Translations under genes and position numbers: made by a program
Shown: positions 2 to 19,522 of the stretch, piece by piece
Layout of the letters: every line of letters starts with the position of its first letter
How positions within the stretch are numbered: the first letter of the stretch is position 1
Assembly: GCA_038845265.1 (NCBI GenBank)
Contig: JAWBQR010000015.1
Coordinates: 1-21,736 of the forward strand
Length of the DNA stretch: 21,736 nt
From: Nitrososphaerota archaeon
GTDB lineage: Archaea; Thermoproteota; Nitrososphaeria_A; Caldarchaeales; Calditenuaceae
Reading direction: 5' to 3'
The notes under the pieces: model-generated
What the model saw: the letters and a program-made list of their open reading frames with translations, nothing else
Database searches by the model: none
Told to the model about the DNA's origin: nothing

Positions 2-658
2 GGTGAACCTACAGGATATCTGCCAGGTGGTGCATTTTTGTATACAAATTCTTCGACGATCAGTCTTGGCCTAGTCATCTTTTTAGACGCAGCCATTAGT
101 AGAATCGACCAACATGTTTATGAACTCCTTGAAGGACTAAGGCTCAGCCCAGTCATGATGAATATCATCGGTGATGGTACTTTACTTGAGTATGGTGCTC
201 ATCTTACACCTGAAGCCGGTCTAAGTCTTTGTCCAAATAAACTATATAGCGATGGATTACTAATTGCTGGTGATGCGGCGGGCCTACTTCTAAACCTAGG
301 ATATACAATAAGAGGCGTAGATTTCGCTGCTTACAGCGGTTATCTAGCAGCCAAAGCAGTAATTAAAGCTCATGAAAACGGTGACTATTCATCTATGACT
401 CTCTCCTACTATCAAAAACTGATAGAGGAAAGTTTTATCATGAAGGAGATGAAGAAACATAGTGATGTCTCAAAATTATTTGGATCAAATGAACTATTTA
501 GTCTCTATCCATCATTAGTGATTGATACTGCTAAAAGGTTGTATGAAATTGAGGAATATTCGCCAAAGTTAATGGAAGCTTTTAGAGAATCTATAAGGGG
601 AAAGAGTAGTATGATTTCTATTTTATTTAAGTTGTTAAAATTGGTGAGAACAATATGA
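2..658 (+). CDS. fixC: FixC/EtfC-type flavoprotein (ETF:quinone oxidoreductase), 5'-truncated by the window edge
   Basis: The frame is open from base 2 (GEPTGYLPGGAFLYTN...), so the TTG at 38 is internal. FixC motifs GGAFLYTN, LEYGAHLTPE and AGDAAG...TIRGVDFA are present. The stop overlaps the fixX start (ATGA, 655-658). Confidence 0.9.
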   Translation, partial: GEPTGYLPGGAFLYTNSSTISLGLVIFLDAAISRIDQHVYELLEGLRLSPVMMNIIGDGTLLEYGAHLTPEAGLSLCPNKLYSDGLLIAGDAAGLLLNLGYTIRGVDFAAYSGYLAAKAVIKAHENGDYSSMTLSYYQKLIEESFIMKEMKKHSDVSKLFGSNELFSLYPSLVIDTAKRLYEIEEYSPKLMEAFRESIRGKSSMISILFKLLKLVRTI

Positions 659-954
659 GTAGCCAAAAAATTGTAAAAAGGGTAAAAGTAGATGACGCGT
701 TAAATTTGAATGTATGGGATGTTGACTCTAAGCCCCATATAATAGTAGATTATGAGAAGTGTAAACGACTTTGTGATAAAAAGATATGCACGTATTTATG
801 TCCTGCTAAATGTTACATTCCTACAGAGAATGGAATACTATTTAGTTATGAAGGATGTTTAGAGTGCGGAACGTGTAGGATAGTCTGTCCACATGAGGCG
901 ATTAATTGGGATTATCCCCTGAGTGGTAGGGGAGTGCAGTATAGATTTGGGTGA
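655..954 (+). CDS. fixX: FixX/EtfX ferredoxin-like protein
   Basis: Cys motifs CDKKICTYLCPAKCY and CLECGTCRIVCP, the typical C-terminus WDYPLSGRGVQYRFG, a GGTGAG SD at 643-648, and ATGA coupling to fixC. Confidence 0.92.
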   Translation: MSSQKIVKRVKVDDALNLNVWDVDSKPHIIVDYEKCKRLCDKKICTYLCPAKCYIPTENGILFSYEGCLECGTCRIVCPHEAINWDYPLSGRGVQYRFG

Positions 955-961
955 ATCAAGA

Positions 962-1765
962 ATGGGACTAAACATTATTGTATCTGTTAAATGGGTTCCA
1001 AATACGCAGATAGTAAATATTGATCCCGTGACTGGAACATTAATTAGAGAAGGGATACCCAGCATAGTTAATCCGCACGATCTGAATGCAGTCGAGTTGG
1101 CTCTGAAGTTAAAAGAGAGATATGGGGGGAAAGTCACTGCGTTAAGCATGGCGCCACCAACAGCAAAGACTGGCTTAGAGTTTGTCCTCGGAATGGGAGT
1201 TGACAGAGCAATACTTATCAGCGATAGATTTTTTGCAGGGGCAGATACATTAGCAACTGCATATACCTTAGCCAAAGCGATAGAGAAGCTCAATCCATTC
1301 GATGTATTAATATTGGGTCAAGAAACCATAGACAGCTCAACTGCGCACATCGGTGCGCAGATAGCATCTTCGTTGAGAATTCCATATCTTTACTACGTGA
1401 TTGATGCCGAGTATATAGATGGATTCATAAGGGCAAAGCGACGGCTTGAGAAAAAAGTCGAGATATATGACCTCCCAATACCATGCTTGCTAGTTACAGC
1501 CATGAAAAGTAACGATCCTAGGCCAGTAAAACTTTCACTAAAGCTTAGAGCTAAACTAGAAAACTTAATAGAGACATGGACGAATAACGAATTAAGGCTA
1601 AACACTGATTGTATTGGGCTCAAAGGCTCACCGACAAGAGTAATGAAATGTATTCCCACTCCGTCGATTCCAAGAAAAAAGCAAATATTCCAAGGAAATG
1701 ACCCTAAAGAGGCTGTGAAATGGCTGCTTGATAGATTAAATGAGGAGGGGGTAAAATTAATATGA
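962..1765 (+). CDS. fixA: Electron transfer flavoprotein beta subunit (FixA/EtfB)
   Basis: Motifs VKWVP, NPHDLNAVELAL, SMAPP, DRFFAGADTLATA and GLKGSPTRV. Start moved from 923 to ATG 962 because GGTGA (950-954) lies 7 nt upstream and the family-like sequence begins at MGLNIIVSVK. Confidence 0.93.
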   Translation: MGLNIIVSVKWVPNTQIVNIDPVTGTLIREGIPSIVNPHDLNAVELALKLKERYGGKVTALSMAPPTAKTGLEFVLGMGVDRAILISDRFFAGADTLATAYTLAKAIEKLNPFDVLILGQETIDSSTAHIGAQIASSLRIPYLYYVIDAEYIDGFIRAKRRLEKKVEIYDLPIPCLLVTAMKSNDPRPVKLSLKLRAKLENLIETWTNNELRLNTDCIGLKGSPTRVMKCIPTPSIPRKKQIFQGNDPKEAVKWLLDRLNEEGVKLI

Positions 1766-2805
1766 GTTCCCAAACAGGTTGCTCAGAGTGGAAGCCTATT
1801 AATAAGAATGAATGGAGAGGCGTTTGGGTATTCATAGAGACATTTGAAGACGAAGTAAATGAATCATCACTTCAACTTCTTAGTCCAGGTAAGATTATTG
1901 CAGAAAAACTTCAAACGAAATTATGTGGTGTTATATTAGGACATAATGTTAAAAGATTCTTAATGGAGCCGATATATTATGGTGCTGATAAAGTAATTTA
2001 TGTTGATGATAAAAAACTAGCTAGCTATTATCCTGATGTTTATGCTGAGACTTTAGCAAAATTGATACTGAAACATAAGCCCGAAGTTTTGCTGGCAGCT
2101 GGGACTCTAAGAGGAAGAGAAATGATTCCTTACGTGGCGAATATTCTAAAGTGCGGGATAACTGCAGATTGTACAGATTTTGATGTAGATACTTCGTCAA
2201 GGGATTTAATTATGATCAGACCACCATACGGCGCAACGCTTCTTGCATATATCAAATCTCCTGAAAGAAGACCACAGATTTCAACTGTGCGTCCAAATGT
2301 CTTCAAGCTGCCAAAAAGAGACGAGTCAAGAAATGGAGATGTGGTCGAGGAAAGGGTAGAGATTCCCGATCCGGTGGCGAAGTTAGTAAGTAGTGAGGAG
2401 ATTAGAACTGAGGACATTCCAATAGAGAAGGCAGATGTCATAGTTTCAGGCGGTAGAGGAATTGGCTCGCCTGATGGCTTTAAGCTACTTGAAAACCTAG
2501 CCATGATGCTGAACGGCGTTGTGGCAGGGTCTAGGAAAGCCGTCGATGCTGGATGGATTCCTCATGAGAGACAAGTAGGACAGACTGGCAAATCAGTAAA
2601 GGCATCACTATACCTAGCTATTGGCATCTCCGGGGCCGCACAACACCTTTTCGGAATAAGAGAGGCAGTCACTGTAGTGGCTATAAATAATGACCCTGAG
2701 GCACCAATATTTGAAAACTCAGACTATGGAATAGTCGGAGACTACAGAGTAATAGTACCTGCATTAATTGAAGAAATCAAAAACAGAAGAAGTATCCATA
2801 AATAA
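1762..2805 (+). CDS. fixB: Electron transfer flavoprotein alpha subunit (FixB/EtfA)
   Basis: Motifs GVWVFIE, GITADCT, TVRP, VSGGRG, RQVGQTGKSV, GISGAAQH and AINNDPEAPIF; ATGA overlap with fixA. Confidence 0.95.
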   Translation: MSSQTGCSEWKPINKNEWRGVWVFIETFEDEVNESSLQLLSPGKIIAEKLQTKLCGVILGHNVKRFLMEPIYYGADKVIYVDDKKLASYYPDVYAETLAKLILKHKPEVLLAAGTLRGREMIPYVANILKCGITADCTDFDVDTSSRDLIMIRPPYGATLLAYIKSPERRPQISTVRPNVFKLPKRDESRNGDVVEERVEIPDPVAKLVSSEEIRTEDIPIEKADVIVSGGRGIGSPDGFKLLENLAMMLNGVVAGSRKAVDAGWIPHERQVGQTGKSVKASLYLAIGISGAAQHLFGIREAVTVVAINNDPEAPIFENSDYGIVGDYRVIVPALIEEIKNRRSIHK

Positions 2806-2907: not shown

Positions 2908-3924
2908 TTGAGGGCTGTATTAATAGGACAAACTGGTAAGCCGGAGCTAGTGGAAGTCCCTTTGCCAATTGTTGGAAGAGGTGAAGTTGTGATTAAAATG
3001 ATTGCATGTGGAATCTGTGGCACAGATATTGAGAAGATTAAGGGGCACTATAAGGGCTCAATGCCAGTGATTGGTCATGAAGCTGTTGGAAGCGTAGAGG
3101 AGGTTGGAGATGATGTGTCAGGGTTTAGGAAAGGAATCATAGTTGTGCCTCATCACCACGTCGAGTGTGGAAAGTGTTACTACTGCATTCACGGAAGCGA
3201 GACAATGTGTCCAGAATACAGAAAATATAACTTTATTCCCGGAGGATTTGCTGAGTTTTTCAAGCTTCCAGCTTGGATTGTAAGTAATGGGGGAATACAT
3301 GTTCCTCCTAGAAATATAAATCCAGAAGAAGCTACCCTCACTGAGCCACTAGCTTGCTGTATAAGGGCTCTAAAGAGGGTGGGACTGAAGCGGGGAATAA
3401 ATGCCTTAATATTAGGATTAGGCCCCATCGGCTTATTATTCATAAAACTGCTTAGGTATTATGAAGCGGAATCAGTAATAGGGTATGATTTGACGGAATA
3501 CAGGCTGAAGATGGCTGAAAAGGCGGGCGCAAAAGTGGTACATAGTGATAACGTGGCTACCGAGTTGCCATACATTGTTGATAGAAGAGGAGTTGACTTA
3601 ACTATTTTGGCGACCGGCAGTATGAAGGGTTTAGCGACGGCCCTCGACTGTACGAGGCCAGGAGGAATCGTTTGCTTATTTGGACTACCTCCACATAATT
3701 CAAAACTAGATTACGATATCAGTAGACTAGTTAATTATGAATTATCAATTGTTACGAGTAATGCAGCGACTAAAAAAGAAATGGATGAAGCATTAAAGTT
3801 GATCTCTGAAGGTGTGATTAAAGTAGATGACATAATTACACATAGGCTGTCTCTTGATAGATTTGGTGAAGCTCTCGAAATATATGAATCAAGAGATTGT
3901 GGAAAAATTATTATTACGCCATAA
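2908..3924 (+). CDS. Zinc-dependent medium-chain dehydrogenase (sorbitol/L-iditol-2-dehydrogenase-like), probably NAD-linked
   Basis: Catalytic Zn motifs CGICGTD and GHE, structural Zn motif CGKCYYC-x7-C, EPLACC, and Rossmann motif GLGPIG followed by an acidic residue (GYD). TTG start. Confidence 0.92.
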   Translation: MRAVLIGQTGKPELVEVPLPIVGRGEVVIKMIACGICGTDIEKIKGHYKGSMPVIGHEAVGSVEEVGDDVSGFRKGIIVVPHHHVECGKCYYCIHGSETMCPEYRKYNFIPGGFAEFFKLPAWIVSNGGIHVPPRNINPEEATLTEPLACCIRALKRVGLKRGINALILGLGPIGLLFIKLLRYYEAESVIGYDLTEYRLKMAEKAGAKVVHSDNVATELPYIVDRRGVDLTILATGSMKGLATALDCTRPGGIVCLFGLPPHNSKLDYDISRLVNYELSIVTSNAATKKEMDEALKLISEGVIKVDDIITHRLSLDRFGEALEIYESRDCGKIIITP

Positions 3925-3934
3925 AAAGAAAAAA
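3922..3934 (-). terminator. Oligo-T terminator candidate for lsrF
   Basis: The minus strand reads TTTTTTCTTTTTA immediately after the lsrF stop, in the gap between two convergent genes. Confidence 0.5.
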
Positions 3935-4726
3935 TCATGCAGAAGTCTTTATTGTTAGTTCTTCTGCTGCCTCTTCAGGAGTAGCATTTTCATGGATGAT
4001 TCTCCTAATTGCTTTTATCATTCCTACTGGATTCTTTGCTTGGAAGATATTCCGGCCCATATCTACTCCTATGGCGCCTTCTTGAATCGCATTGTAAACC
4101 ATCTTTAAGACGTCCATATCACTCTCTAGTTTTGGTCCGCCGGCTATTACTAACGGCACCGGACAAGTATCAGCGACCCTATTGAAGTTTTCGCAGTAGT
4201 ATGTTTTGACAAAATGTGCTCCTAACTCTGCTGCAATTCGGCAAGCTAATGATAAGTATCTAGCATCTCTCTTCTCAAGCTCCCTACCGACGGCAGTTAC
4301 TGCCAAAACAGGCATACCGTACCTCTCTCCTTCATCAACAAGTCTTGCTAGTGAAGTAAGTGTCTGATGTTCAAACTGCGTACCGACAAATATTGAGAAT
4401 GATACTGCTGAAGCGTTAAGCCTGAGTGCTTCTTCAATAGAGGTTATTATCTCCTCATCACCTAGCGCGGGCCCTGCTATGCTTTCACCTCCAGAAACAC
4501 GCAGCACCACGGCTACATCAATTGAAGGATCGAAACAGTTTCTAAGAATGCCTCTAGTTGGCATAATGGCGTCGCAGTATGGTAATAGCGGCGTTATGCT
4601 CCGCCGCGGATCTTCTAAGCCAGAAATAGGGCCGAGGAAGTATCCGTGATCTATGGCCAGCATAACCGTCCTTCCGTCATAAGGCTTAATTATTTTAGAC
4701 AATCGATTCTTTAATCCCCAGCTCAT
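3935..4726 (-). CDS. lsrF: LsrF-family 3-hydroxy-5-phosphonooxypentane-2,4-dione thiolase (DhnA/class I aldolase fold)
   Basis: The N-terminus WGLKNRL...GRTVMLAIDHGYFLGP and the motifs TRGILR, LAVTAVG, RDARYLSLACRIAAELGA, VKTYY (catalytic Lys), IAGGPK and GVDMGRNIFQ match the LsrF subfamily rather than generic DhnA aldolases. Confidence 0.88.
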   Translation of the reverse strand: MSWGLKNRLSKIIKPYDGRTVMLAIDHGYFLGPISGLEDPRRSITPLLPYCDAIMPTRGILRNCFDPSIDVAVVLRVSGGESIAGPALGDEEIITSIEEALRLNASAVSFSIFVGTQFEHQTLTSLARLVDEGERYGMPVLAVTAVGRELEKRDARYLSLACRIAAELGAHFVKTYYCENFNRVADTCPVPLVIAGGPKLESDMDVLKMVYNAIQEGAIGVDMGRNIFQAKNPVGMIKAIRRIIHENATPEEAAEELTIKTSA

Positions 4727-4766: not shown

Positions 4767-5036
4767 TTAAAAAGTTCTTTCCCACTCTTTTATCTTGGGA
4801 GCCCTGAATCCCAGTCTACAATATGGGTCTTTGTTAGCTATCTCCTCAGCTTCTGAACGATCGCTAACAAGCAGAATGTACATTCCGCCGCTACCGTCAG
4901 TAAACCTTCCTCCAAGTAATAACTTTCCCCTCCTCTTTTGCTCCTCGAGATATGCTAAATGTTCAGCCCTATGCTTAGCTGCTTCGCTTTGATCGCCTAC
5001 TGGTTCAAGGATGACTACATAATAGTGTTGCTCCAT
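4767..5036 (-). CDS. YciI-family protein (dimeric alpha/beta barrel)
   Basis: Motifs HRAEHLAYL, GGRF..GSGGMYIL and DPY. The SD AAGGAG abuts ATG 5042 but is 6 nt from ATG 5036, which is therefore preferred. Confidence 0.85.
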   Translation of the reverse strand: MEQHYYVVILEPVGDQSEAAKHRAEHLAYLEEQKRRGKLLLGGRFTDGSGGMYILLVSDRSEAEEIANKDPYCRLGFRAPKIKEWERTF

Positions 5037-5054
5037 TCCCATCTCCTTATTTAG

Positions 5055-6212
5055 TTATTGATTATAGTATGATACAAATTTTTCGATCAATTCAATCGCC
5101 TGGATTAATAATTTAGGACTGACTGCGAATGTTATTCTAAAATGCCCTTCTCCCCCACTCCCGAAGGCTTTGCCAGGCATTACTACGACGCCCTGGCTCA
5201 TTAATAGTTTTTTACAAAACTCATAGGAGTTTACCCTTAAAGGAATTCGTGGAAATATGTAGAAGGCTCCCCTCGGCAGTGAGACACTAAAGCCTCTTCT
5301 CTTTAATAGGTCATATATTAGATCACGTCTCGTTCTATAAGAATTAATGTTAAGTTTAACAACCTCGGCAACATATGGGCTTGACAAAGCATGCAGTACT
5401 GCATACTGCGCTGTGCTCGGTGGACAAGCATTCATATATGTCTGAAGTTTTATAACGTACTTAATTAATGACTTATCTCCTATTGCAAAACCAAGCCGCC
5501 AACCAGTCATTCCATAAGTCTTGGAAAAGCTATGAACAGTAATTATTTTATCAAACTTCGTCCTAAATTTATTACAACTAGTGAACTCTCCATCATAAAC
5601 AAATTTCTCATACACTTCATCTGAGAGGATATAGATATCTTTTTCCGACGCTAAATCAACAAGCGAATTCAATAATTCTTCATCATATACGTACCCAGTG
5701 GGATTTGTGGGAGTATTTACAATAATTAGTCTCGTTCTTTGAGTTATACATTCATTGATTTCTTCAATCTTTGGTTTAAAGTCCTCTTCTAATACAGTGG
5801 GTATTTCTACTGGCTTACCACCCACAATGCGCACTATAGCTTCGTAACTGGGATAAGAAGGTGAAGGAATTATAACCTCATCGCCTGTCTTAACTAATGA
5901 AGCAATAATCATGAATAAAGCATTACTAGCACCAGGTGTCAATATTACATTTGAGTAATCAAGGTCAAAATTCCACCAGGAGCCATAATTTTCGGCTATT
6001 AATTCTCTTAGCTCTCTTAACCCAGCAGTAGGTGTATAACGATTCTTCCCTTCAGCTATGGCGCTACAAGCTATCTTTTTCACTTCCTCCGGTACGCCGA
6101 AGTCTGGCTCTCCTATCCCTAGATTGATTATTTCTCTTTTGTCAGATAAACTATCAAAAAACTCCTCTATCCAACTAGTCTCGATTGAATTAATGATCTC
6201 AGATATACGCAA
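5055..6212 (-). CDS. Class I/II PLP-dependent aminotransferase (aspartate/aromatic/methionine aminotransferase-like)
   Basis: Motifs INLGIGEPDF, YTPTAG..ELR, NTPTNPTG, SDEVY, SFSKTYGMTGWRLG (PLP lysine), GAFY and FRITF. TTG start. Confidence 0.93.
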   Translation of the reverse strand: MRISEIINSIETSWIEEFFDSLSDKREIINLGIGEPDFGVPEEVKKIACSAIAEGKNRYTPTAGLRELRELIAENYGSWWNFDLDYSNVILTPGASNALFMIIASLVKTGDEVIIPSPSYPSYEAIVRIVGGKPVEIPTVLEEDFKPKIEEINECITQRTRLIIVNTPTNPTGYVYDEELLNSLVDLASEKDIYILSDEVYEKFVYDGEFTSCNKFRTKFDKIITVHSFSKTYGMTGWRLGFAIGDKSLIKYVIKLQTYMNACPPSTAQYAVLHALSSPYVAEVVKLNINSYRTRRDLIYDLLKRRGFSVSLPRGAFYIFPRIPLRVNSYEFCKKLLMSQGVVVMPGKAFGSGGEGHFRITFAVSPKLLIQAIELIEKFVSYYNQ

Positions 6213-6238
6213 TCTTGCTCAATCGATTTGATCTTTAC

Positions 6239-6253
6239 TATAAAATTTACTTT
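6239..6253 (-). promoter_or_regulatory. TATA box candidate for the aminotransferase
   Basis: The minus strand reads AAAGTAAA-TTTTATA, ending 26 nt before the TTG at 6212. Confidence 0.5.
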
Positions 6254-6309
6254 TCTTTAAACATCGCCATACTTATTTAGAAGATTAATAATAAATAGAT
6301 CAAGGGAAT

Positions 6310-7137
6310 ATGCAGCTTCGAGTTGCGGCAATCCAGCCAACCGTGGTCGACGATCTGAATCAAAATATAGAGGGAGTCATGCGGCTAATACGAACTGCAA
6401 GCAACAATGGTGTAGATATAGCTGTGCTTCCTGAATTGTGGATACATTCAAGACCTATGGAAAAAATCAATCAACTAGCCAGTGCCTCTGATTTGATCGT
6501 TCGGAAACTGATGAGAATTGCGAAGATGTTTGAAGTAGCAATAATTGGTGGAGGCATCTATATCCATGAGGAGAGCCATGTAAAGATAGGCTGCCCAGTT
6601 ATAAACCAAGATGGAGAACTATTAGGGATTCAGCATAAACTTCACCTTATTAATGAGGAGCGCTCCTTAATCTCGCCGGGAGACAGGTTTGACATCTTCA
6701 AAATCATGGGAACAACTATGGGGATAGCAATCTGTCACGACATCGTTTATCCTGAATATATAAGAATTTTAGCCTTGAAAAGTGCAGAGATAATTCTTAA
6801 CCCATCTAGAATCATGACATCTGGAATAAAGCCATGGCACCTTTATCTGCAAGTTAGGAGCTTAGAAAACAGAGTACCTATAATTGCTCCCAATATATGG
6901 ATAAAGGGTCGATTCGGCGGTAACAGCATGATTGTAAAGCCGACAGAGAAAGCGAAGGGAATCTATGTACCATTATGTAAAGTATCAAGAAATGGTTCCT
7001 CAGCTTTAGTTGACGTTATTGAGACAGAAAATCTAAAAAAGGCTCGAATGGATAGACTATTAGCAAGGCGACCGGATATCTATAGTGACGTGATAAACGA
7101 GTTTTTAATAGAAGGTAAAGAAGATGCGAGAGGATAA
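6310..7137 (+). CDS. Carbon-nitrogen hydrolase (nitrilase superfamily; amidase/omega-amidase-like)
   Basis: Glu-Lys-Cys triad in LPELW, HKLHL and ICHDI; also VRSLEN, GNSMIV and a C-terminal RRPDIY. Confidence 0.9.
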   Translation: MQLRVAAIQPTVVDDLNQNIEGVMRLIRTASNNGVDIAVLPELWIHSRPMEKINQLASASDLIVRKLMRIAKMFEVAIIGGGIYIHEESHVKIGCPVINQDGELLGIQHKLHLINEERSLISPGDRFDIFKIMGTTMGIAICHDIVYPEYIRILALKSAEIILNPSRIMTSGIKPWHLYLQVRSLENRVPIIAPNIWIKGRFGGNSMIVKPTEKAKGIYVPLCKVSRNGSSALVDVIETENLKKARMDRLLARRPDIYSDVINEFLIEGKEDARG

Positions 7138-7930
7138 AATCTTAAAAAAACTAATGCGCAGAGAATATATAAGCGATGTTAGACATAGGTTTCTAGAAAA
7201 AGATAAGTCGTTAGACGAGTCGGCTTTTGAAGAAGTTTTCGATAAATTGACTTTATTTACAATTTATGAATTAATGAATAAAGGCATTATTGACGATTTT
7301 TATGGAGTTGTTAGTGCTGGGAAAGAATCTAGAATATATAATGCAAAATCGAAGGAAGGCGAAGAACTCGCTGTCAAGATCTACCTAGTGAACAACGCAG
7401 AGTTTCGCAGATCAAGAAACGTATATGTGTTAAATGATCCAAGATTTAGAAGGGTACCTAATCAATTAAGAGAATTTATTTATCTATGGGCAAGAAGAGA
7501 ATTCACTAATCTGCAGACTGCCTATAGGGTAGGGATTCCTGTTCCCAAACCGGTATTCGTTAGTCGAAATGTCTTAGTCATGGGCTTTTTAGGTAAGAAT
7601 GGCGAACGGTATCCCCTATTAAGAGAAATAGAAATTGAGCCTGAAAAGGCTTTAATTATTTACGAAAAAATAATAAAATATATCGACAAGCTATACAAAA
7701 ATGCCAAACTTATACATGGCGATCTGAGTGAATATAACATCGTGGTTGCTGACACAGATGAAATCTACTTCATAGACCTTTCTCAAGCTATTCATATCTC
7801 TCACCCGATGGCTAACGAATTTCTAAAAAGAGACATCAAAAATGTAAATAGATACTTCTTAAGCATCGGAATAGAACCAATTGACGACGAAACCCTAATA
7901 TCAATGATAATGGAAGAAAATCATGAATGA
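7124..7930 (+). CDS. rio1: RIO1-type atypical Ser/Thr kinase/ATPase (small ribosomal subunit maturation)
   Basis: Motifs EEVFD, VSAGKES, AVKIY, DPRF, WARREFTNL, IHGDLSEYN, FIDLSQA and HP.A.EFLKRD. Overlaps the nitrilase gene by 14 nt. Confidence 0.94.
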   Translation: MREDKILKKLMRREYISDVRHRFLEKDKSLDESAFEEVFDKLTLFTIYELMNKGIIDDFYGVVSAGKESRIYNAKSKEGEELAVKIYLVNNAEFRRSRNVYVLNDPRFRRVPNQLREFIYLWARREFTNLQTAYRVGIPVPKPVFVSRNVLVMGFLGKNGERYPLLREIEIEPEKALIIYEKIIKYIDKLYKNAKLIHGDLSEYNIVVADTDEIYFIDLSQAIHISHPMANEFLKRDIKNVNRYFLSIGIEPIDDETLISMIMEENHE

Positions 7931-8088
7931 TAAAAAGTAAAATAACAAATTATCATGAACATAAAAAATGTGTTGAAAAACTCATACTTTCACGCTAATA
8001 ACATACCAGTTAATTAGTTAAAATTTTGGTAATCCTCAAATGACTAGTTAACTTTAAATTAACGAGTATTTGTCCTATTGATGGTAAT

Positions 8089-8478
8089 ATGACCATTTGG
8101 CATAGTGATTTACACAAAAGAAAGAAGACAGGTGGAAAGAAGGGAATTCAGCGTAAGAAAAAAAGATATGAGAGGGGACGTGACCCAGTTCTAGTGACGA
8201 TAGGAGAAAGAGAAATCAAGATAAAGAGATGTCGTGGTGGGGGAGTGAAGATTAGTGTAAAGTCAGACAAGTTTGCTAATGTCTTTGACCCATCTTCGAA
8301 TAAATGTGTACGTACAGAGATAATCCGAGTTAAGTCTAACCCCGCAAATAAAGATTTTGAAAGAAGGGGCATAATTACTAAGGGTGCAATAATCGAAACT
8401 CCTATAGGAGATGCACGAGTAACTTCTAAACCCTCGATGGATGGCGTAATAAATGCAATATTGATAGCTAAAAAGTAA
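8089..8478 (+). CDS. rps8e: 30S ribosomal protein S8e
   Basis: Motifs RKKTGGK, KKRYERGR, R.RGG..K, NPAN..F.RRGIITKGAII and ARVTSKPSMDGVINA. A TTTAAAT TATA-like box lies at 8053-8059. Confidence 0.96.
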   Translation: MTIWHSDLHKRKKTGGKKGIQRKKKRYERGRDPVLVTIGEREIKIKRCRGGGVKISVKSDKFANVFDPSSNKCVRTEIIRVKSNPANKDFERRGIITKGAIIETPIGDARVTSKPSMDGVINAILIAKK

Positions 8479-8498
8479 TTTATTTAGGTGGAGATAAT

Positions 8499-8783
8499 TT
8501 GATTAGGCGTGATGGAGTTATAGTTTGGTTATCATATTTTGATAGAGGTTTATCTCGAAGTGAAGGGCGACGTGTGCCTATCAATAAGGCTATTAAGTCG
8601 CCAACCAAGGAACAGCTATTAAAGGCTGCTGAAAGACTAGGATGGAAAGCTGAGCCATTAGAGCTTAGCCATCCTTCATATTGGTGGAAAAAATCATCAG
8701 CTATTAGAGTTTATCCTAACAAGCGCGTGAAGAAAGAAATTCTACTGAGACTATTAGCTGATGAGGTTGTAAAGTTAAAGTGA
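8499..8783 (+). CDS. srp19: Signal recognition particle 19 kDa protein
   Basis: Motifs VWLSYFD..LSRSEGRRVP, AIKSP and HPSYWW; TTG start with a GGTGGAG SD; the usual position after rps8e. Confidence 0.92.
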   Translation: MIRRDGVIVWLSYFDRGLSRSEGRRVPINKAIKSPTKEQLLKAAERLGWKAEPLELSHPSYWWKKSSAIRVYPNKRVKKEILLRLLADEVVKLK

Positions 8784-9079
8784 AACCAGGAAGGAGAAAG
8801 GATGTCGAGCATCGACGTATAAGCGAAAAGGTATTGTTGCTCGGTACTTACTTTAAGAAAGTTGGTCATGAGTTATTGATATTGGGAAAAAATTTGCCAG
8901 ATCTAGGGGATAGAGTTTATGATGAAAAGCTAAGAGAAGTGGGATATGTGTCAAATGTATTTGGTCGTGTTGAAAACTATTTCATAATTGTTAGAAATTT
9001 AACGAATAGAGAGTTTCGAGAAGGGGATGTGTTTTATTTAATAAGGAGAGAAAAACAAGCATCTCAGAGTAGAAAATAA
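8780..9079 (+). CDS. gar1: Gar1/Naf1-family H/ACA RNP protein
   Basis: The pattern P.LGDRVYD.KL.EVG.VSNVFGRV..YF matches archaeal Gar1, and the rps8e-srp19-gar1 order is typical. GTGA overlap with srp19; a later TTG start at 8834 or 8837 is possible. Confidence 0.75.
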   Translation: MKPGRRKDVEHRRISEKVLLLGTYFKKVGHELLILGKNLPDLGDRVYDEKLREVGYVSNVFGRVENYFIIVRNLTNREFREGDVFYLIRREKQASQSRK

Positions 9080-9125
9080 TTGTTCAAAATTATTTGTCTT
9101 ATACCTACTTCTTATTTGTATGTTC

Positions 9126-9140
9126 GGAAAAGTTTTATTA
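9126..9140 (+). promoter_or_regulatory. BRE + TATA candidate for the coxD-coxE-moeA unit
   Basis: GGAAAAG-TTTTATTA, followed by an SD-like AGGGTG (9165-9170) before the GTG at 9181. Confidence 0.5.
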
Positions 9141-9180
9141 ATGATGTAGGAGTAAGTATCTACAAGGGTGTGTCTGATAA

Positions 9181-10083
9181 GTGTGTGCTGACTCTTTACT
9201 TGATTCACTAAATATTGATATACTCATGAAAAAGTTGGAGGAAGAATTGTATGTAGCTGATCGAGAGATAGCGACTGCATTATTCTTAGCAATCAAGATG
9301 AGGAAGCCGCTCCTAATTGAAGGAGAGCCAGGCTGTGGCAAGACTGAGATAGCCAAAGTTTTGGCAAAAATTTTAGGTACAGAGTTAATCAGGCTGCAGT
9401 GCTACGAAGGGCTCGAAGTATCTGATGCGATTTACGAGTGGAACTACCCACGACAGTTACTATACATAAAGATGGTTGAGAATAGAAAAGAACCGAAAGA
9501 TGTCGAGGAAGAGATTTTTAGTGAAAAATATCTCTTAAAGCGTCCCCTCCTTAAAGCGCTCCTGAGCGATTGTGAGGTCCCTCCTGTGTTATTGATAGAT
9601 GAGGTTGATAGGGCCGACGAAGAATTTGAGGGATTTCTGCTAGAATTTTTGGCAGAGTATCAAATAACTATTCCTGAGATAGGAACGATCAAGGCAAAAA
9701 ATCAGCCGATTGTAATTCTTACGTCTAATAGGACTAGAGAGATTGGTGACGGCTTAAAGAGACGGTGTTTATATCTTTATATCTCCTATCCATCTATGGA
9801 GAAGGAACTTAAAATATTGAAAATGAAAGTTAAATCTATCGATGACTCAGTCGCTGAAAAGATTGTAAGTTTTGTGAACTTGATCAGACAGAGAAACGAT
9901 ATTTTAAAGAAACCAGGCGTGGCCGAGACCCTTGATTGGGCGAAAGCGCTAACCGAGCTCGGTGCTAAAGAATTCAATAAAGAGATCGTTAAGTCAACAT
10001 TATTATGTATTATAAAGACACAGGAAGATATCTCAAGAATAGACGTAGAATCAATGCTGAACATGTTGTCGAGTGGTGCATAA
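9181..10083 (+). CDS. MoxR-family AAA+ ATPase, CoxD-like
   Basis: Walker A EGEPGCGKT, RLQCYEGL..SDAIYEWNY, Walker B LLIDEVDRADEEFE, TSNRTRE, LKRRC and KKPGVAETLDW; followed by a VWA partner. Confidence 0.92.
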   Translation: MCADSLLDSLNIDILMKKLEEELYVADREIATALFLAIKMRKPLLIEGEPGCGKTEIAKVLAKILGTELIRLQCYEGLEVSDAIYEWNYPRQLLYIKMVENRKEPKDVEEEIFSEKYLLKRPLLKALLSDCEVPPVLLIDEVDRADEEFEGFLLEFLAEYQITIPEIGTIKAKNQPIVILTSNRTREIGDGLKRRCLYLYISYPSMEKELKILKMKVKSIDDSVAEKIVSFVNLIRQRNDILKKPGVAETLDWAKALTELGAKEFNKEIVKSTLLCIIKTQEDISRIDVESMLNMLSSGA

Positions 10084-10086
10084 TAC

Positions 10087-11229
10087 TTGTACGATTTTAT
10101 TGTAGAGCTGTCAAATTTATTAAGAAAGAGTGGAGTAAGGGTAGGTGTCTCTGAATCATTAGACGCATGTCAAGCAGTTAATTTATTATCAAATTATGAT
10201 TATGAAACAATCATGACAGGAATAAAAATAACCATGATTAAGGATTACTCGAAATATTCTATTTTCGAAAAATTATTCAAAGAAATGCTTCAGGCACTGA
10301 TAACTGCGAATGGAAATATAGGAATGGGCAATATAAGTGGACAGATAATGAGTAAAACAGCTACATATGGTAATGCTGGACAAGCTGAGAATACTTCCTC
10401 ATCTGATAAAGCTGGTAAAAACACGATAATGTATAGCCCTGCTGAAGTACTGCACAAGAGAGAGGTTAAGCCAATCGATTTAACAAAGATAAAGACAGGA
10501 AAGAGAATTATGAAGCGTCTAAGGAGAAAATTTGCAATACTCCCAGGCCTGAGGTGGAAACCATCAAAGAAGGGAAACATTGATTTTGTGAGAACCTTTA
10601 GGTCAAGCCTTAACACTTTTGGAGAGATAATTAAGATAAAAAAATCAGAGAGAATAAAAACAAGAGTCCATTTAGTGGCATTTCTCGATATAAGTGGGTC
10701 TATGGATAGCTATAATGACTGGCTGGTAAGGGCAATGTATCTTTTTAGCAGATTTGACAAGAGGGCAGAAATATTTGTCTTCAGCACAAGATTGCTAAGA
10801 ATAACTGATTTATTAATGACTTCTTCGCTCGACGAGATTCGCAGAAGATTGTCTCAGTACATAGATCTATGGGGAAGTGGCACCAGAATTGGATATTCAT
10901 TAAAGACATTTCTGGATAATTATGGATCAATGATTGGCAAGAATTGGATCGCGATAATAGTAAGTGATGGATGGGATACAGGCGATATAGATTTATTAAG
11001 AATTGGAATGGAAAACCTACGGATGAGAGTTTCAAAGATAATATGGCTTAATCCTCATGCGGATAGGCTCAACTTTAGGCCACTAACTATTGGTATGCTC
11101 ACAGCTTTGCCATACATAGATGTATTGGCTGGTACAAGTGTAATTGAGGATTATAGAGCATTCTTGAAGTTCTTTGGAACATATATAAAACCTGATAAGT
11201 ATAGATCTTCACGTATGAGATATGCGTAA
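10087..11229 (+). CDS. CoxE-like VWA-domain protein
   Basis: MIDAS motif DISGSM, FVFSTRL, WGSGTRIG, SDGWDTGD and IIWLNP. TTG start 3 nt after the AAA+ stop. Confidence 0.9.
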   Translation: MYDFIVELSNLLRKSGVRVGVSESLDACQAVNLLSNYDYETIMTGIKITMIKDYSKYSIFEKLFKEMLQALITANGNIGMGNISGQIMSKTATYGNAGQAENTSSSDKAGKNTIMYSPAEVLHKREVKPIDLTKIKTGKRIMKRLRRKFAILPGLRWKPSKKGNIDFVRTFRSSLNTFGEIIKIKKSERIKTRVHLVAFLDISGSMDSYNDWLVRAMYLFSRFDKRAEIFVFSTRLLRITDLLMTSSLDEIRRRLSQYIDLWGSGTRIGYSLKTFLDNYGSMIGKNWIAIIVSDGWDTGDIDLLRIGMENLRMRVSKIIWLNPHADRLNFRPLTIGMLTALPYIDVLAGTSVIEDYRAFLKFFGTYIKPDKYRSSRMRYA

Positions 11230-12481
11230 TAAAGGAATCACTTCTTTTATGGAGATCTCTGACGCCGTTAATCTATTAATAAACAATGCATTAACTATTT
11301 CAAGAATAGTTAAAGGAAGACCATTCAGCTTGATCGGTAGACCACTCGCTAATGCAATCACTTCTCCTGTCGATAGGCCTCCTCTCGATATGTCTCATGT
11401 CGATGGCTTCTCGATAAGGTCTATCGACTCTATTCATGCTTCCAAAGAAAACCCTGTCAGACTCAGGATTGAAGGATGTATTAAGCCATCACAAAACTTT
11501 AAACCAATCGAGCCGGGCAAAGCGGTAAAGATCTATACAGGTGGTTATCTGCCACCCGGTGCGGACACAGTTGCACCCATAGAGGAAGTGGAGGTAGAAG
11601 GGAATGATTTACTAATTTTTAGAAGTTATCACCCATATGAAAATGTAGATAGAAAGGGAAGCGATGTGAAAAAGGGTGACATATTATCTTATGAGAACGA
11701 GATTTTAACTTCAACCAAAGCAGCATTGTTTGAAGCACTAGGCATATATGAAGTTAGTGTCATAGATAGACCAGTAGCTGGATTACTCACATTCGGAGAT
11801 GAATTAACAGATGTTCCCGAGGAGGCTAAGAGTGGAAAGACTCTAAATTTTTTATCACCACTCATAGAGCAGATGCTCAACAATCTTGGATGTAATGTCA
11901 AATACTATGGAATAGTGCCTGACGATGTTGAATTAGCGAAGAGAAGAATAATGGAGGCGCTTGAGGAGTGCGATTTAGTATTGACTATAGGTGGGTCAAG
12001 CGTGAGCGAGATAGACGTCGCCTCGTTAGCATTAAAGGAAATCTCAGAAATCTTCGTTAAAGGTCTAAAATTACAACCAGGAAGAGTGGGAGGCTTTGCA
12101 ATTATGAACCGAAAACCAGTCTTTACGCTTCCCGGACTAATCCATTCGACAGTAAATGTCTTTAACTACATAGTTGCTCCATTAATATGTTATATTCAAA
12201 AAATAAATTATCAATCCCTGATCGAGAAACTTGAGGCAAAGTTAAGTCAAGACCTAACATTAAGAAAGTGGATAAGTTTTAGAAGAGTTGTATGGGTGAA
12301 GCTAAGAGCTATGGGAGACGAATTCATGGCCGTGCCTCGGCATGGCCAATCTTCACTAATATCTCTTATTGGGCTCTCAGATGGATATATCGAAGTCCCG
12401 CCGTCCATAGAATGTCTTAAAGCGCAGAGTAAAGTAATGGTTTATAGACCTGCTTGGATGGACCCAAGAATTCTTAAGTAG
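11222..12481 (+). CDS. moeA: Molybdopterin molybdenumtransferase MoeA-like protein (divergent)
   Basis: Motifs PPLDMSHVDGFS, IYTGGYLPPGADTVAPIE, GSDVKKGD, GDEL, GIVPDD, TIGGSSV and LPG. Overlaps the VWA gene by 8 nt. Confidence 0.88.
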   Translation: MRNKGITSFMEISDAVNLLINNALTISRIVKGRPFSLIGRPLANAITSPVDRPPLDMSHVDGFSIRSIDSIHASKENPVRLRIEGCIKPSQNFKPIEPGKAVKIYTGGYLPPGADTVAPIEEVEVEGNDLLIFRSYHPYENVDRKGSDVKKGDILSYENEILTSTKAALFEALGIYEVSVIDRPVAGLLTFGDELTDVPEEAKSGKTLNFLSPLIEQMLNNLGCNVKYYGIVPDDVELAKRRIMEALEECDLVLTIGGSSVSEIDVASLALKEISEIFVKGLKLQPGRVGGFAIMNRKPVFTLPGLIHSTVNVFNYIVAPLICYIQKINYQSLIEKLEAKLSQDLTLRKWISFRRVVWVKLRAMGDEFMAVPRHGQSSLISLIGLSDGYIEVPPSIECLKAQSKVMVYRPAWMDPRILK

Positions 12482-12538
12482 TCATTTTCACTAAACCCTG
12501 ATAATTTAATTATTTACCACTTTGATATTCAACATAGA

Positions 12539-13699
12539 TTGAGAATCTTTAAAAATGAGGAGAAGCTTTCGCCTGAATATGTACCGTCGAGACTCCCCCA
12601 TCGAGAAGAAGAACTAAACCTACTCATTACTTTCTTCTCGACCCATATTTATGGCAAGAAAGGATATAGCGTCAGAGTACTAATAACAGGGCCCGTCGGA
12701 GCCGGAAAGACTGCGCTTAGCAAATTATTTGGAGCGAAGGCTGAAGAAATAGCGTCACATGCTGGAGTAAACCTGAGATATATTCACATTAACTGCAAGA
12801 TACATACAACTCTCTTCTCTCTTCTTAAACGAGTTGTAGATGCTTTAAGATCACCTATTCCTGGAAGGGGATTATCAAATGAGGAGCTTCTCCACAGCTT
12901 GATGAATTATTTAGAGAATAAACGTCAGACCTTAATTCTAGGACTTGACGAAGTGGACGGACTAATTCGAGAAGAGCCAGAGGCACTATACTTGTTAAGC
13001 AGAATATCAGAAGAGAGAGACGCAGTACCTAGATTATCACTCCTCATGATTAGTAGGAATGTCGAGGTACTGAATATTCTTGATGAGAGCACTAGAAATT
13101 TGCTTCAAAATAATGTATTGTATCTATCAGAATATAATGCTGACCAGTTAAGAGACATTATTGAATATAGATGTTCTGAAGCATTTATTGAAGGAGTAGT
13201 GACGCCTGAGGTTCTCAGCTTGATAGTAGATATGGCCGCCGAGAGGGGTGATGCAAGGTATGCGATTGAAGTATTATGGAGAGCCGGCAAATTTGCTGAG
13301 AACGAAGGTGTCGATAAGGTATCTCCTGAACATGTTAGGAAGGCCGCTGCAAGTGTTTATCCAGCCATAAAGAGGGAGAATCTCGCTCACATTTCTCATC
13401 ATGAGCGATTAATTCTTCTGGCAACTACTAGACTGCTGATGAATGGCGCGAAGTCTCACATCACATCGTCTGAACTATACTCGACTTATAAGGTTGCATG
13501 TGAAGAATATAGCACGTTTCCTAGAGGCTACACTAGGTTCTGGGAATACCTTCAAAGACTCGAAGATATAGGATTCATCAGAATAAGGGTCTTAAGCGAA
13601 GGAATAAGGGGAAGGAGAAGCTACATCACACTACCAGAAATCCCTGCATCAATACTTAACAGAGAATTAAAAGCACTACTAGAAAAAAGAAAAGAATAA
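12539..13699 (+). CDS. cdc6: Cdc6/Orc1 replication initiator AAA+ ATPase
   Basis: Motifs IFKNEEKLSPEYVP.RLPHRE, Walker A GPVGAGKT, INC, Walker B LDEVD, sensor-2 GDARYAI, and a C-terminal winged helix (LEDIGFI...GIRGRR). TTG start 26 nt after TTTAATTA (12505-12512). Confidence 0.95.
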   Translation: MRIFKNEEKLSPEYVPSRLPHREEELNLLITFFSTHIYGKKGYSVRVLITGPVGAGKTALSKLFGAKAEEIASHAGVNLRYIHINCKIHTTLFSLLKRVVDALRSPIPGRGLSNEELLHSLMNYLENKRQTLILGLDEVDGLIREEPEALYLLSRISEERDAVPRLSLLMISRNVEVLNILDESTRNLLQNNVLYLSEYNADQLRDIIEYRCSEAFIEGVVTPEVLSLIVDMAAERGDARYAIEVLWRAGKFAENEGVDKVSPEHVRKAAASVYPAIKRENLAHISHHERLILLATTRLLMNGAKSHITSSELYSTYKVACEEYSTFPRGYTRFWEYLQRLEDIGFIRIRVLSEGIRGRRSYITLPEIPASILNRELKALLEKRKE

Positions 13700-13743
13700 G
13701 TTTATTAATAATTAATCAATTAATTAACCCATTAATATAATAC

Positions 13744-13752
13744 TTATATATA
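13744..13752 (+). promoter_or_regulatory. TATA box candidate for the ABC transporter operon
   Basis: TTATATATA about 28 nt upstream of ATG 13781, preceded by a very AT-rich tract. Confidence 0.55.
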
Positions 13753-13780
13753 GGAAAACATTTAGTACACCTGAAGAAGC

Positions 13781-15145
13781 ATGTCAGCTTCAGAGATTAA
13801 ATTTTCTAGACGTGAAGCCCTCAGCACTGGTGCTAAAGTAGCCATAGGTGTGGTGGGCGCCGCTATAGTTGGTGGCGTAGCTTATGCACTTTATCAACAA
13901 GCGGCTGTGCCTCAAAAAGTAAAACTTGAATTTACTGTGTGGAACTATTCAGTAGAGACGATACGTGACAATATTCAGAAGTTTATGCAACAATATCCAA
14001 ACATAGAAGTCGTACTTTACGACTTTAATTGGCCTGACTATCCATCGACGATGGTCCAGAGATTTACTACCAAGACCCCAACTGACGTATGTTATAATGG
14101 TGAAGACTGGCTAGCCCAATGGGCGGAAGCAGGATGGGTAGTCCCTCTACAAGATTATTGGGACAAATACACTGTGAAGAAGAAATTTAACGAATATGTA
14201 AACGACATGGTGCCCTTTGCAAGAGAATCAATGACTTACAAGGGAAAAATCTATGGATTACCCTACTATTCAGATATGTTTACATTCATGTACAATGATA
14301 AAATACTAAAAGATAATGGTATAGAAGTTCCTCAGACATGGGAGGATGTACTAGATGCATCTTTAAAACTAAAAGAAAAGGGGATAAAGTATCCTTACGT
14401 GCTACAGTATCAGGCAACTAATCCATTTGACTTCTATGCAGTATTCTCTGGAGCAATGGGAAGGGGAGCAAGGTTATTTGACGAAGACCTTAACCCGATA
14501 TTTGCATCAGAAGACCATCCATTCTACGAGCACTTGCAATGGATAGTAGACGGAATCCACAAATATAAGATCGTCAATCCTGATTACCTTGCTACACATG
14601 AAACTGATGCCGCGAAAAAGATGGGCGCAGGAGAAGGCGCATTTACGGTTCTTGCCAAATATATGCTGGCAGCCATGAACGCACCCGGATCTTCACCAAA
14701 TGCAGGAAACTTTAGGCTGGCCCTAATGCCTGGAAAGACACATGAAGCATATGGCTTTGCAAAGATGTATAACATAACCCGTATGTGTGTTGACAGAGGT
14801 GACGCTGCTATTCAAGCTGCAATAACATTCATAGAATATTTCGGCGCCAATGATAGCCCTGTTCTAAAAAGATGGGCCGTAGAAAAAGGACTAGGATTCG
14901 GTTTCTTATCGCCCTACAGCGATCCCGATATCGCTAAGTCACTAGTCGAATATTATGGTCCAGGAGCAGATAAATCAATAAAGGAACAGGCATCGATTGC
15001 TAAGACCATACCACATCCCGTTTGGTTCGGCCAATGGGTAGACTATAGCATTAAAGAAGCTATCGCAAAGGCGTTTGCGAATGAAATTACTGTGAAAGAA
15101 GCAGTAGACAGAATGGCTAAACGCGCAAAAGAACTCAGGGGATAA
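13781..15145 (+). CDS. Carbohydrate ABC transporter substrate-binding protein (family 1) with a twin-arginine signal/anchor
   Basis: SRREAL followed by a hydrophobic helix; family-1 features F.QQYPNIEV, GKIYGLPYY, FMYN.KIL and PQTWED; lies upstream of two permeases. Confidence 0.9.
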   Translation: MSASEIKFSRREALSTGAKVAIGVVGAAIVGGVAYALYQQAAVPQKVKLEFTVWNYSVETIRDNIQKFMQQYPNIEVVLYDFNWPDYPSTMVQRFTTKTPTDVCYNGEDWLAQWAEAGWVVPLQDYWDKYTVKKKFNEYVNDMVPFARESMTYKGKIYGLPYYSDMFTFMYNDKILKDNGIEVPQTWEDVLDASLKLKEKGIKYPYVLQYQATNPFDFYAVFSGAMGRGARLFDEDLNPIFASEDHPFYEHLQWIVDGIHKYKIVNPDYLATHETDAAKKMGAGEGAFTVLAKYMLAAMNAPGSSPNAGNFRLALMPGKTHEAYGFAKMYNITRMCVDRGDAAIQAAITFIEYFGANDSPVLKRWAVEKGLGFGFLSPYSDPDIAKSLVEYYGPGADKSIKEQASIAKTIPHPVWFGQWVDYSIKEAIAKAFANEITVKEAVDRMAKRAKELRG

Positions 15146-15151
15146 CAAAAA

Positions 15152-15180
15152 TTTTATTTATTTTTGGTACTTCTTTTTAT
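15152..15180 (+). terminator. T-rich intra-operon terminator/attenuator candidate
   Basis: TTTTATTTATTTTTGGTACTTCTTTTTAT directly after the binding-protein stop, a plausible way to make excess binding protein. Confidence 0.45.
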
Positions 15181-15194
15181 GATGGGTGGTTGGA

Positions 15195-18186: not shown

Positions 18187-18200
18187 TTATTGAGCATTTT

Positions 18201-19517: not shown

Positions 19518-19522
19518 TTTAT

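Follow-up and report, generated by a model that had tools for sequence, protein, structure and literature searches.

A conserved pairing of LsrF with a dehydrogenase as a candidate oxidative salvage route for 5-deoxyribulose-1-phosphate, and its divergent form in a Nitrososphaerota archaeon

In enterobacteria LsrF takes part in the degradation of the autoinducer-2 (AI-2) signal, and its gene in an archaeon, next to a dehydrogenase gene, raises the question of which substrate the enzyme receives there and from which partner. The DNA analyzed here, called the window, is the whole 21,736-bp contig C15 of a Nitrososphaerota archaeon genome (1.37 Mb in 34 contigs, 93% complete). It carries genes for a Zn/NAD-type dehydrogenase of the medium-chain dehydrogenase/reductase (MDR) superfamily, labeled P0001, and for an LsrF-family protein, labeled P0002; other labels denote genomes (G), loci (L) and families, f1 being the window's own. 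A direct read of the sequence agreed with the earlier description of the two genes as tail to tail, with a 10-nt gap between their stop codons (Table 1). The original prediction was that the dehydrogenase oxidizes 5-deoxyribulose-1-phosphate and that LsrF cleaves the product with coenzyme A (CoA), giving dihydroxyacetone phosphate (DHAP) and acetyl-CoA. Salvage by such a predicted oxidation and thiolysis is the best-supported reading; it is drawn entirely from comparative genomics, and we hold it tentatively, at slightly less than an even chance.

P0002 scores 386.3 bits against the curated LsrF model NF006081 (cut-off 297) and stays below the cut-offs of the ADH synthase models (223 against 241 and 208 against 299). 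Its identity to Escherichia coli K-12 LsrF is 49.2% over 256 amino acids. According to Diaz et al. 2009 (PMC2728841), Lys203 of LsrF forms the Schiff base, Asp57 is the acid/base residue, the phosphate site comprises His58, Gly226, Gly227, Gly253 and Arg254, and Asp251 is replaced by Ala in the closest aldolase relatives. All of these positions are kept in P0002, where D26, H27, K174, G196, G197, D222, G224 and R225 correspond to E. coli D57, H58, K203, G226, G227, D251, G253 and R254. In the family alignment, E. coli included, the LsrF-specific Asp251 is conserved in 100 of 103 sequences and the other seven residues in 103 of 103. The genome's own ADH synthase (C1:21036-21842; 307 bits, TIGR01949 cut-off 299) has Thr at the Asp251 position.

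The relationship to the enterobacterial enzyme is closer in some bacterial members linked to the dehydrogenase. Eight Nitrospirota LsrFs reach 479-507 bits over the full model, six of them directly followed by an MDR gene, and the four that were compared with E. coli LsrF are 60-64% identical to it. In the LsrF tree, five of these eight form a clade with E. coli LsrF (99% support), which nests among MDR-linked LsrFs; the root is uncertain, as the outgroup is a single long branch. In 2014 Marques et al. reportedly found E. coli LsrF to be a thiolase that converts 3-hydroxy-2,4-pentanedione-5-phosphate (P-HPD) and CoA to DHAP and acetyl-CoA. P0002 can be regarded as a putative thiolase of the LsrF family, with a presumed dependence on CoA.

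An AI-2 system that could feed this enzyme was searched for in the window and in the genome. Profile scans of the window proteins gave no other lsr gene, as had been noted before. In tblastn searches of the whole 93%-complete genome with E. coli queries, LsrG, LsrB, LsrC, LsrD and LsrR had no match at E <= 1e-3, the LsrA query returned generic ABC ATPases only, and the LsrK query returned one FGGY kinase with 27% identity. This sole FGGY kinase is xylulokinase-like (371 bits, just below the XylB cut-off of 380) and falls far short of the AI-2 kinase cut-off (218 against 528); it adjoins a glycerol-1-phosphate-dehydrogenase-like gene and a D-2-hydroxyacid dehydrogenase gene. The YCII-family gene directly upstream of P0002 was considered as an LsrG-like partner and rejected, since, in sister genomes, the small ORF that precedes LsrF gives no YCII match. 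It may share one transcript with LsrF and lies outside the conserved module.

The partner of LsrF is an MDR dehydrogenase in most genomes where the family was found. A cross-phylum set of the 80 best LsrF loci, with one genome per species, covered Archaea (Nitrososphaeria, Thermoplasmata, Bathyarchaeia, Altiarchaeia, Undinarchaeia, Jordarchaeia and others) and Bacteria (Omnitrophota, Binatia, Nitrospiraceae, Thermodesulfobacteriota, Dehalococcoidia, Coriobacteriia, Acidobacteriota and others). An MDR gene lies within 2.6 kb of LsrF in 64 of the 80 loci, its product being 31-47% identical to P0001; all 64 share the LsrF strand, 58 are within 400 nt, and the MDR gene is downstream in 34 and upstream in 30. 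The remaining 16 loci comprise one with a truncated MDR at the contig edge, three in which one side spans less than 600 nt, and 12 with enough sequence but no MDR. The counts do not hinge on L066 (genome G306), one of the 80 loci, which is flagged as unpublished. Clustering of the neighboring ORFs recovered the LsrF family in 75 loci, the MDR family in 62 and the next family in only 13, the last reflecting synteny within a lineage; the other neighbors are housekeeping genes (RecR, DnaX, class I tRNA synthetase, GNAT). In the home phylum, 301 genomes were sampled and LsrF exceeded the cut-off in 71, of which 60 are outside the window's family. Comparison of the coordinates by hand placed an MDR gene on the same strand within 1 kb of LsrF in 58 of these 60, and within 200 nt in 57; in the two exceptions the genes are at separate contig edges (one genome) or 82 kb apart (one genome). 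Of the 26 LsrF-bearing genomes among the 121 of Nitrospirota, 20 have the MDR gene adjacent and co-directional, three have it on a different contig, and in three it was not found. Similar pairs in other archaea and bacteria, which the original prediction had also mentioned, are thus real, and a same-strand MDR of one subfamily accompanies LsrF across both domains. LsrF and MDR form a strong cross-domain gene pairing, with an adjacency that is in general far beyond chance. Among the loci compared, only the window pair is convergent; it is a degenerate instance of the module and its weakest example.

Fused and extended forms of LsrF were also seen. Three MDR-LsrF fusions and one radical-SAM (S-adenosylmethionine) LsrF fusion were rejected as gene-calling or assembly artefacts; they are singletons in which the DeoC domain ends at profile position 167-205 of 229. 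P0138 is a full-length fusion of LsrF with a short-chain dehydrogenase/reductase (SDR), also a singleton. P0123-P0135 are LsrF homologs of 465-549 amino acids, about 60% identical to P0002, with a C-terminal extension of 200-280 amino acids; several of their genes are on long contigs, and a Pfam scan of the extension in P0123 and P0127 gave no match.

P0001 matches the two MDR domains of Pfam (ADH_N, 82.5 bits; ADH_zinc_N, 65.3 bits) and reaches no NCBIfam equivalog. Its best model is L-threonine 3-dehydrogenase (tdh), for which it is below both cut-offs (180 against 458 for TIGR00692 and 168 against 380 for NF003808), followed by the inosose, YdjJ-type and AdhP models. Secondary-alcohol dehydrogenases (threonine, inosose, polyol) gave 138-180 bits with P0001, and the aldehyde reductase Ahr gave 68; the best solved relatives are the Pyrococcus L-threonine 3-dehydrogenases 2DFV and 2D8A (152 bits). 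The protein keeps C37, H57, E58 and E146 as well as C87/C90/C93/C101, which, as in other MDR enzymes, would be the ligands of the catalytic zinc (Cys, His, Glu) and, for the last four Cys, of the structural zinc.

A tree of 104 MDR sequences (quick IQ-TREE search, LG+G4, SH-aLRT support only) was rooted with three further MDR paralogs from the genome, all separate from the LsrF-linked subfamily as a whole. P0001 groups with nine f1 orthologs (99 SH-aLRT). A clade of 27 rows (97 SH-aLRT) unites this group with eight MDRs linked to LsrF and with nine from f21, a family without LsrF. P0001 lies inside a clade with LsrF-linked MDRs and is therefore, on this phylogeny, orthologous to the partner enzymes. 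Of 69 MDRs linked to LsrF, 68 have R78, 66 have N124, 68 have Y285 and 61 have P86. P0001 has I78, I124, N285 and E86 at these near-invariant positions and keeps the H83-H84-V85 motif and D194. Its f1 clade has L or I at position 78 (R in two of ten), I124 and N285 in ten of ten, and N or E at position 86; the f21 MDRs also have N285 (nine of nine). By our own mapping onto horse liver alcohol dehydrogenase, position 285 presumably corresponds to the substrate-pocket residue Ile318 and position 83 to Phe93. The window MDR is, as judged from the phylogeny, a divergent member of the LsrF-linked subfamily.

The distribution of LsrF was compared with that of the enzymes around the proposed substrate. 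The window genome encodes the MtnP-type phosphorylase MTAP (385 bits, cut-off 382) and MtnA (421 bits, cut-off 271), both of which the prediction needed, together with 12 radical-SAM matches. The known consumers of MtnA's product belong to family PF00596; these are the Ald2 and DrdA aldolases (PMC6079011, PMC13474568) and, by NCBIfam model name, the MtnB dehydratase. No PF00596 match was obtained in the 93%-complete window genome. In the home phylum (n = 301), both LsrF and PF00596 occur in 7 genomes, LsrF only in 64, PF00596 only in 192 and neither in 38; the corresponding Nitrospirota numbers (n = 121) are 2, 24, 62 and 33. The anticipated anti-correlation was therefore found, with an overlap of 7 of the 71 LsrF genomes in the home phylum and 2 of the 26 in Nitrospirota. 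Both Nitrospirota overlaps are weak PF00596 matches in ORFs of about 720 amino acids, of which the one in G441 is an aldolase-SDR fusion by Pfam. The switch between LsrF and PF00596 is also seen within families f6, f15 and f33, and in family f10 PF00596 is near MtnA. The other f1 genomes have LsrF in 10 of 11, the MDR ortholog in 11 of 11, MtnA in 11 of 11 and PF00596 in 0 of 11. In this phyletic pattern the module appears to replace the class II aldolase. The LsrF absences should be read with care, since NF006081 gave no match in 14 control genomes, E. coli included, although K-12 carries lsrF; either the control is a strain without lsrF or the first-look filter misses some matches.

Two related Nitrospirota genomes, G441 and G421, offer a different neighbor for LsrF. 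They are the two with gene context among the three Nitrospirota LsrF genomes without MDR, and in both the gene immediately upstream of a full-length LsrF encodes a fusion of a RuBisCO-like protein (RLP) with Cupin_2. These fusion proteins share 87% identity, and their RLP part best matches the DK-MTP-1-P enolase model (MtnW), below its cut-off (201 against 409 bits). In Rhodospirillum rubrum an RLP isomerizes methylthioribulose-1-phosphate and a cupin removes methanethiol (PMC6302742). By our own redox count, methylthioribulose-1-phosphate would stand at the oxidation level of P-HPD plus methanethiol, whereas 5-deoxyribulose-1-phosphate would need a two-electron oxidation; this difference would explain why either an NAD-dependent MDR or an RLP-cupin protein stands ahead of the same thiolase. 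As a general pattern the RLP-cupin and LsrF arrangement was rejected, since tblastn over all collected loci gave only these two loci (L172, L173), and a metagenome scan for it gave five stand-alone cupins with no RLP or LsrF.

From these results we propose the following route. MtnP and MtnA would convert 5'-deoxyadenosine, released by radical-SAM enzymes, to 5-deoxyribulose-1-phosphate, and possibly also 5'-methylthioadenosine to the methylthio analogue. The MDR, with NAD+, would oxidize the C4 hydroxyl of 5-deoxyribulose-1-phosphate to the beta-diketone P-HPD; on paper, the product of this oxidation is indeed P-HPD, as was first stated. LsrF would then form a Schiff base via Lys174, and CoA would cleave P-HPD to DHAP and acetyl-CoA, so that in the DHAP shunt the LsrF-MDR module would take the role of the class II aldolase. 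In genomes with the RLP-cupin fusion in place of the MDR, the methylthio analogue may lose methanethiol and yield P-HPD with no need for NAD. The substrate, the order of the steps and the CoA dependence of P0002 are those that we infer from the comparisons. The exclusion pattern with PF00596 in two phyla points to MtnA's products as the source of P-HPD. Four results favor a thiolase fed by a dehydrogenase: the 60-64% identity of MDR-linked LsrFs to the E. coli enzyme, the clade that they form with it, the RLP-cupin neighbor, and the distribution of the MDR in Nitrospirota. In this phylum MDR orthologs (E <= 1e-97) occur in 23 genomes, of which 22 have LsrF and none has PF00596; a common aldehyde reductase should serve either aldolase type, and the pattern favors oxidation as the first step.

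Several observations weigh against this route. MtnA is near-universal (296 of 301 genomes in the home phylum, 113 of 121 in Nitrospirota, and 34 of 35 other LsrF-bearing genomes, 33 of them above cut-off), so its co-occurrence with LsrF is uninformative and it was discarded as a discriminator. Related genomes are not independent, and the counts of LsrF and PF00596 overstate the signal. Outside the two surveyed phyla, PF00596 genes are also present in 17 of the 35 LsrF-bearing genomes, in some cases next to a further MtnA-like gene, and 38 genomes of the home phylum and 33 of Nitrospirota fall outside the pattern, with neither LsrF nor PF00596. P0002 does not have the N-terminal segment of about 31 residues of E. 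coli LsrF (the alignment begins at residue 32), which is domain-swapped in the E. coli decamer and is present in some MDR-linked Nitrospirota LsrFs. MDR orthologs without LsrF persist in families f2, f3, f21 and f22, and in two f3 genomes (G261 and G082, without LsrF) the ortholog adjoins a class II aldolase. Within the window, the genes are convergent and therefore no shared transcript is possible; in ten of the ten other LsrF-bearing f1 genomes the MDR ortholog (48-51% identity) is away from LsrF, and the f1 MDR clade has lost R78, N124 and Y285. The prediction thus succeeded in its three genomic expectations and fell short for the window's own pair, which is convergent, unlinked in the ten sisters and replaced at these three residues.

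The persistence of MDR orthologs without LsrF and their position beside an aldolase in f3 would suit a DHAP shunt with a class I aldolase, in which the LsrF-like protein splits the ketose-1-phosphate without CoA to DHAP and acetaldehyde or methylthioacetaldehyde, and the MDR reduces the aldehyde to the alcohol. LsrF has the class I aldolase fold with a Schiff-base lysine and a general-base aspartate, its complementarity with the class II aldolase would follow directly if one aldolase had replaced a non-orthologous one, and an aldehyde reductase would be expected beside an aldolase, as the MDR is in G261 and G082. A 2026 review (PMC13474568) states that no enzyme has yet been identified as the alcohol dehydrogenase of the DHAP shunt. 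On the other hand, the characterized LsrF is a thiolase, and the MDR-linked members that are 60-64% identical to it keep Asp251, unlike the close aldolase relatives. The Nitrospirota MDR tracks LsrF and never PF00596, though both aldolase types release the same aldehyde; P0001 scores far lower against Ahr than against secondary-alcohol dehydrogenases; and the adjacency of MDR and aldolase in f3 comes from two genomes of one genus. We consider the aldolase explanation unlikely. At the f3 loci, a cupin ORF follows the aldolase in G082 and a second Tdh-like MDR is on the other side in G261. Another genome (G183) has both systems, with MDR, LsrF and a convergent class II aldolase side by side (L170, C96:6673-9520), and in G092 a second MDR copy is near MtnA, with three genes between.

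A second explanation concerns the window itself, where the two genes could be neighbors by descent only, an inversion having broken the operon, with the MDR taking another substrate and LsrF being fed otherwise or idle. The sole convergent case would be expected under it, as would the loss of adjacency in all ten sister genomes and the replacement of the near-invariant R, N and Y by I or L78, I124 and N285 in the f1 clade, position 285 being presumably in the substrate pocket. It also agrees with two f1 sister genomes in which a different MDR gene comes after LsrF on its strand (L129:5849-6859, +; L134:3921-4949, -); the product, 25% identical to P0001, lacks the cysteine ligand of the catalytic zinc, and the window's genome encodes no ortholog of it. 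Against it are the retention of LsrF and the MDR ortholog in nearly all other f1 genomes and the intact zinc ligands, H83-H84-V85 motif and D194 of P0001. With MtnA in all eleven of those genomes and PF00596 in none, LsrF would still need a feeding enzyme, for which the window MDR is the closest candidate. Descent alone seems to us improbable to a similar degree, and the divergent, convergently placed MDR of the window may still serve LsrF.

In a third explanation the pair would act on another ketose phosphate with a free C4 hydroxyl (ribulose-1-phosphate, fuculose-1-phosphate, rhamnulose-1-phosphate or 1-deoxyxylulose-5-phosphate), giving DHAP and another acyl-CoA, or in the synthetic direction from acetyl-CoA and DHAP. 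It draws on the housekeeping neighbors, among which no conserved kinase, isomerase or transporter adjoins the pair, on the uninformative MtnA, on the 17 LsrF-bearing genomes with PF00596, and on the fact that 1-deoxyxylulose-5-phosphate oxidized at C4 would on paper also be P-HPD. We hold it to be quite improbable, since the module occurs in small-genome autotrophs and also in archaea not known to have a 1-deoxyxylulose-5-phosphate pathway, and since the PF00596 exclusion in two phyla and, likewise, the RLP-cupin neighbor point to MtnA's products.

The remaining genes of the window are included in Table 1. The FixABCX-type cluster 5' of the MDR, with its electron-transfer flavoprotein (ETF) subunits, was examined as a partner of the MDR and rejected, since the MDR orthologs of sister genomes do not have it as a conserved neighbor. 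The 430-aa ORF and the second ABC permease gene share about 115 nt at the end of the latter, and the real start of the ORF may be farther downstream. The closest named relatives of the window proteins are from Nitrososphaerota metagenome-assembled genomes, and hot-spring metagenomes from nine studies hold DNA near-identical to the window. Contigs from one RNA-library run cover positions 3104-3349, 4316-4675 and 5027-5294 at a depth of 3-5, a weak hint of expression of LsrF and MDR that is too thin for a claim of transcription.

Table 1. Coordinates of the features of the window and of related loci in other contigs and genomes.
Feature	Location	Strand	Basis or remark
Zn/NAD-type MDR dehydrogenase P0001, TTG start, 338 aa	2908..3924	+	Pfam ADH_N, ADH_zinc_N; by phylogeny a divergent ortholog of LsrF-linked MDRs
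10-nt spacer between the two convergent stop codons	3925..3934	.	direct sequence read
LsrF-family protein P0002, ATG start, 263 aa, short form	3935..4726	-	NF006081 above cut-off
YCII-family protein, directly upstream of LsrF	4767..5042	-	Pfam YCII, 54 bits
Class I/II aminotransferase, upstream on the LsrF strand (context)	5055..6212	-	Pfam Aminotran_1_2, 239 bits; no NCBIfam equivalog reached
FixABCX-type cluster, 5' of the MDR	2-2805	+	FixC-like flavoprotein, truncated at the contig start
FixX-like ferredoxin	655-954	+	part of FixABCX-type cluster
ETF beta	923-1765	+	part of FixABCX-type cluster
ETF alpha	1762-2805	+	part of FixABCX-type cluster
Housekeeping/transport genes	9181-20500		MoxR-type AAA ATPase and VWA CoxE-like protein, MoeA, Orc1/Cdc6
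ABC transporter: solute-binding protein and two permeases	13781-17008		
Replication factor C large and small subunits	within 9181-20500	-	
430-aa ORF with CxxCxxCC zinc/iron-chelating domain	16894-18186	+	
Xylulokinase-like FGGY kinase	G000:C17:4985-6568 (L167)	-	
MDR ortholog beside class II aldolase	L168 (G261:C42) 6069-7996; L169 (G082:C26) 7640-9901		
RuBisCO-like protein-Cupin_2 fusion, 526-528 aa	L172:9846-11432; L173:2210-3790	-; -	directly upstream of full-length LsrF

Every cell with radical-SAM enzymes must clear 5'-deoxyadenosine, and a class II aldolase is the last enzyme of the known routes. MtnA is present without a class II aldolase in 102 of the 301 genomes of the home phylum and in 57 of the 121 of Nitrospirota, and LsrF is found in 64 and 24 of these, respectively. 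The LsrF-MDR pair is a concrete candidate for the missing step after MtnA. A full-text search, with most subscription journals and all supplements outside its scope, found no literature linking LsrF to the salvage of 5-deoxyribulose, methylthioribulose or SAM by-products. A study of ammonia oxidizers (PMC11442133) gives lsrF candidates for every genome it examined apart from two single-cell genomes and interprets them as part of AI-2 processing. If the proposed route is true, lsrF in ammonia-oxidizing archaea and in Nitrospira would indicate salvage of SAM waste and would not be evidence of AI-2 quorum sensing; it would also give an origin for the enterobacterial AI-2 thiolase, the AI-2 pathway having come later to feed a pre-existing enzyme. 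The joint scenario is that an old housekeeping LsrF-MDR module of Bacteria and Archaea clears 5'-deoxyadenosine without release of an aldehyde, that the RLP-cupin route leads to the same diketone, that AI-2 degradation arose later, and that the lsrF of ammonia oxidizers serves SAM-waste salvage; as a whole we regard it as possible, with rather more doubt than trust.

Among known systems, the enterobacterial LsrF of AI-2 degradation (PDB 3GKF, 3GLC, 4P2V) shares with P0002 the curated family, 49% identity and all named active-site and phosphate residues, Asp251 included. It differs in its setting, since the window genome has no matches for LsrG, LsrR, LsrC, LsrD or LsrB and no AI-2-type LsrK, and in its N-terminal residues; the conserved partner of LsrF is here an MDR dehydrogenase, whereas the enterobacterial counterpart is the LsrG isomerase. 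The DHAP shunt, or 5-deoxyribose salvage (MtnP or MtnK, MtnA or DrdI, Ald2 or DrdA), has MtnP and MtnA in common with the window genome, and 5-deoxyribulose-1-phosphate as input and DHAP as product in common with the proposed route. In contrast, the window genome has no class II aldolase, and the proposed cleavage would be oxidative and thiolytic, yielding NADH and acetyl-CoA in place of a free aldehyde.

L-Threonine 3-dehydrogenase and 2-amino-3-ketobutyrate CoA ligase (Tdh/Kbl) offer an analogy, as an MDR there oxidizes a CH3-CHOH- group to a methyl ketone and a CoA-dependent C-C cleavage gives acetyl-CoA, a logic that the LsrF-MDR pair may share. The differences are that P0001 is below the Tdh cut-off (180 against 458) and that the cleaving enzyme is a Schiff-base TIM barrel and not a pyridoxal phosphate enzyme. 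The R. rubrum 5'-methylthioadenosine-isoprenoid shunt also has an RLP and a cupin, although we know of no LsrF in that pathway. In the two Nitrospirota genomes the RLP-cupin protein is fused, below the MtnW cut-off and confined to one lineage, and it takes the usual place of the MDR upstream of LsrF. The R. rubrum enzymes act on MtnA's product (PMC6302742).

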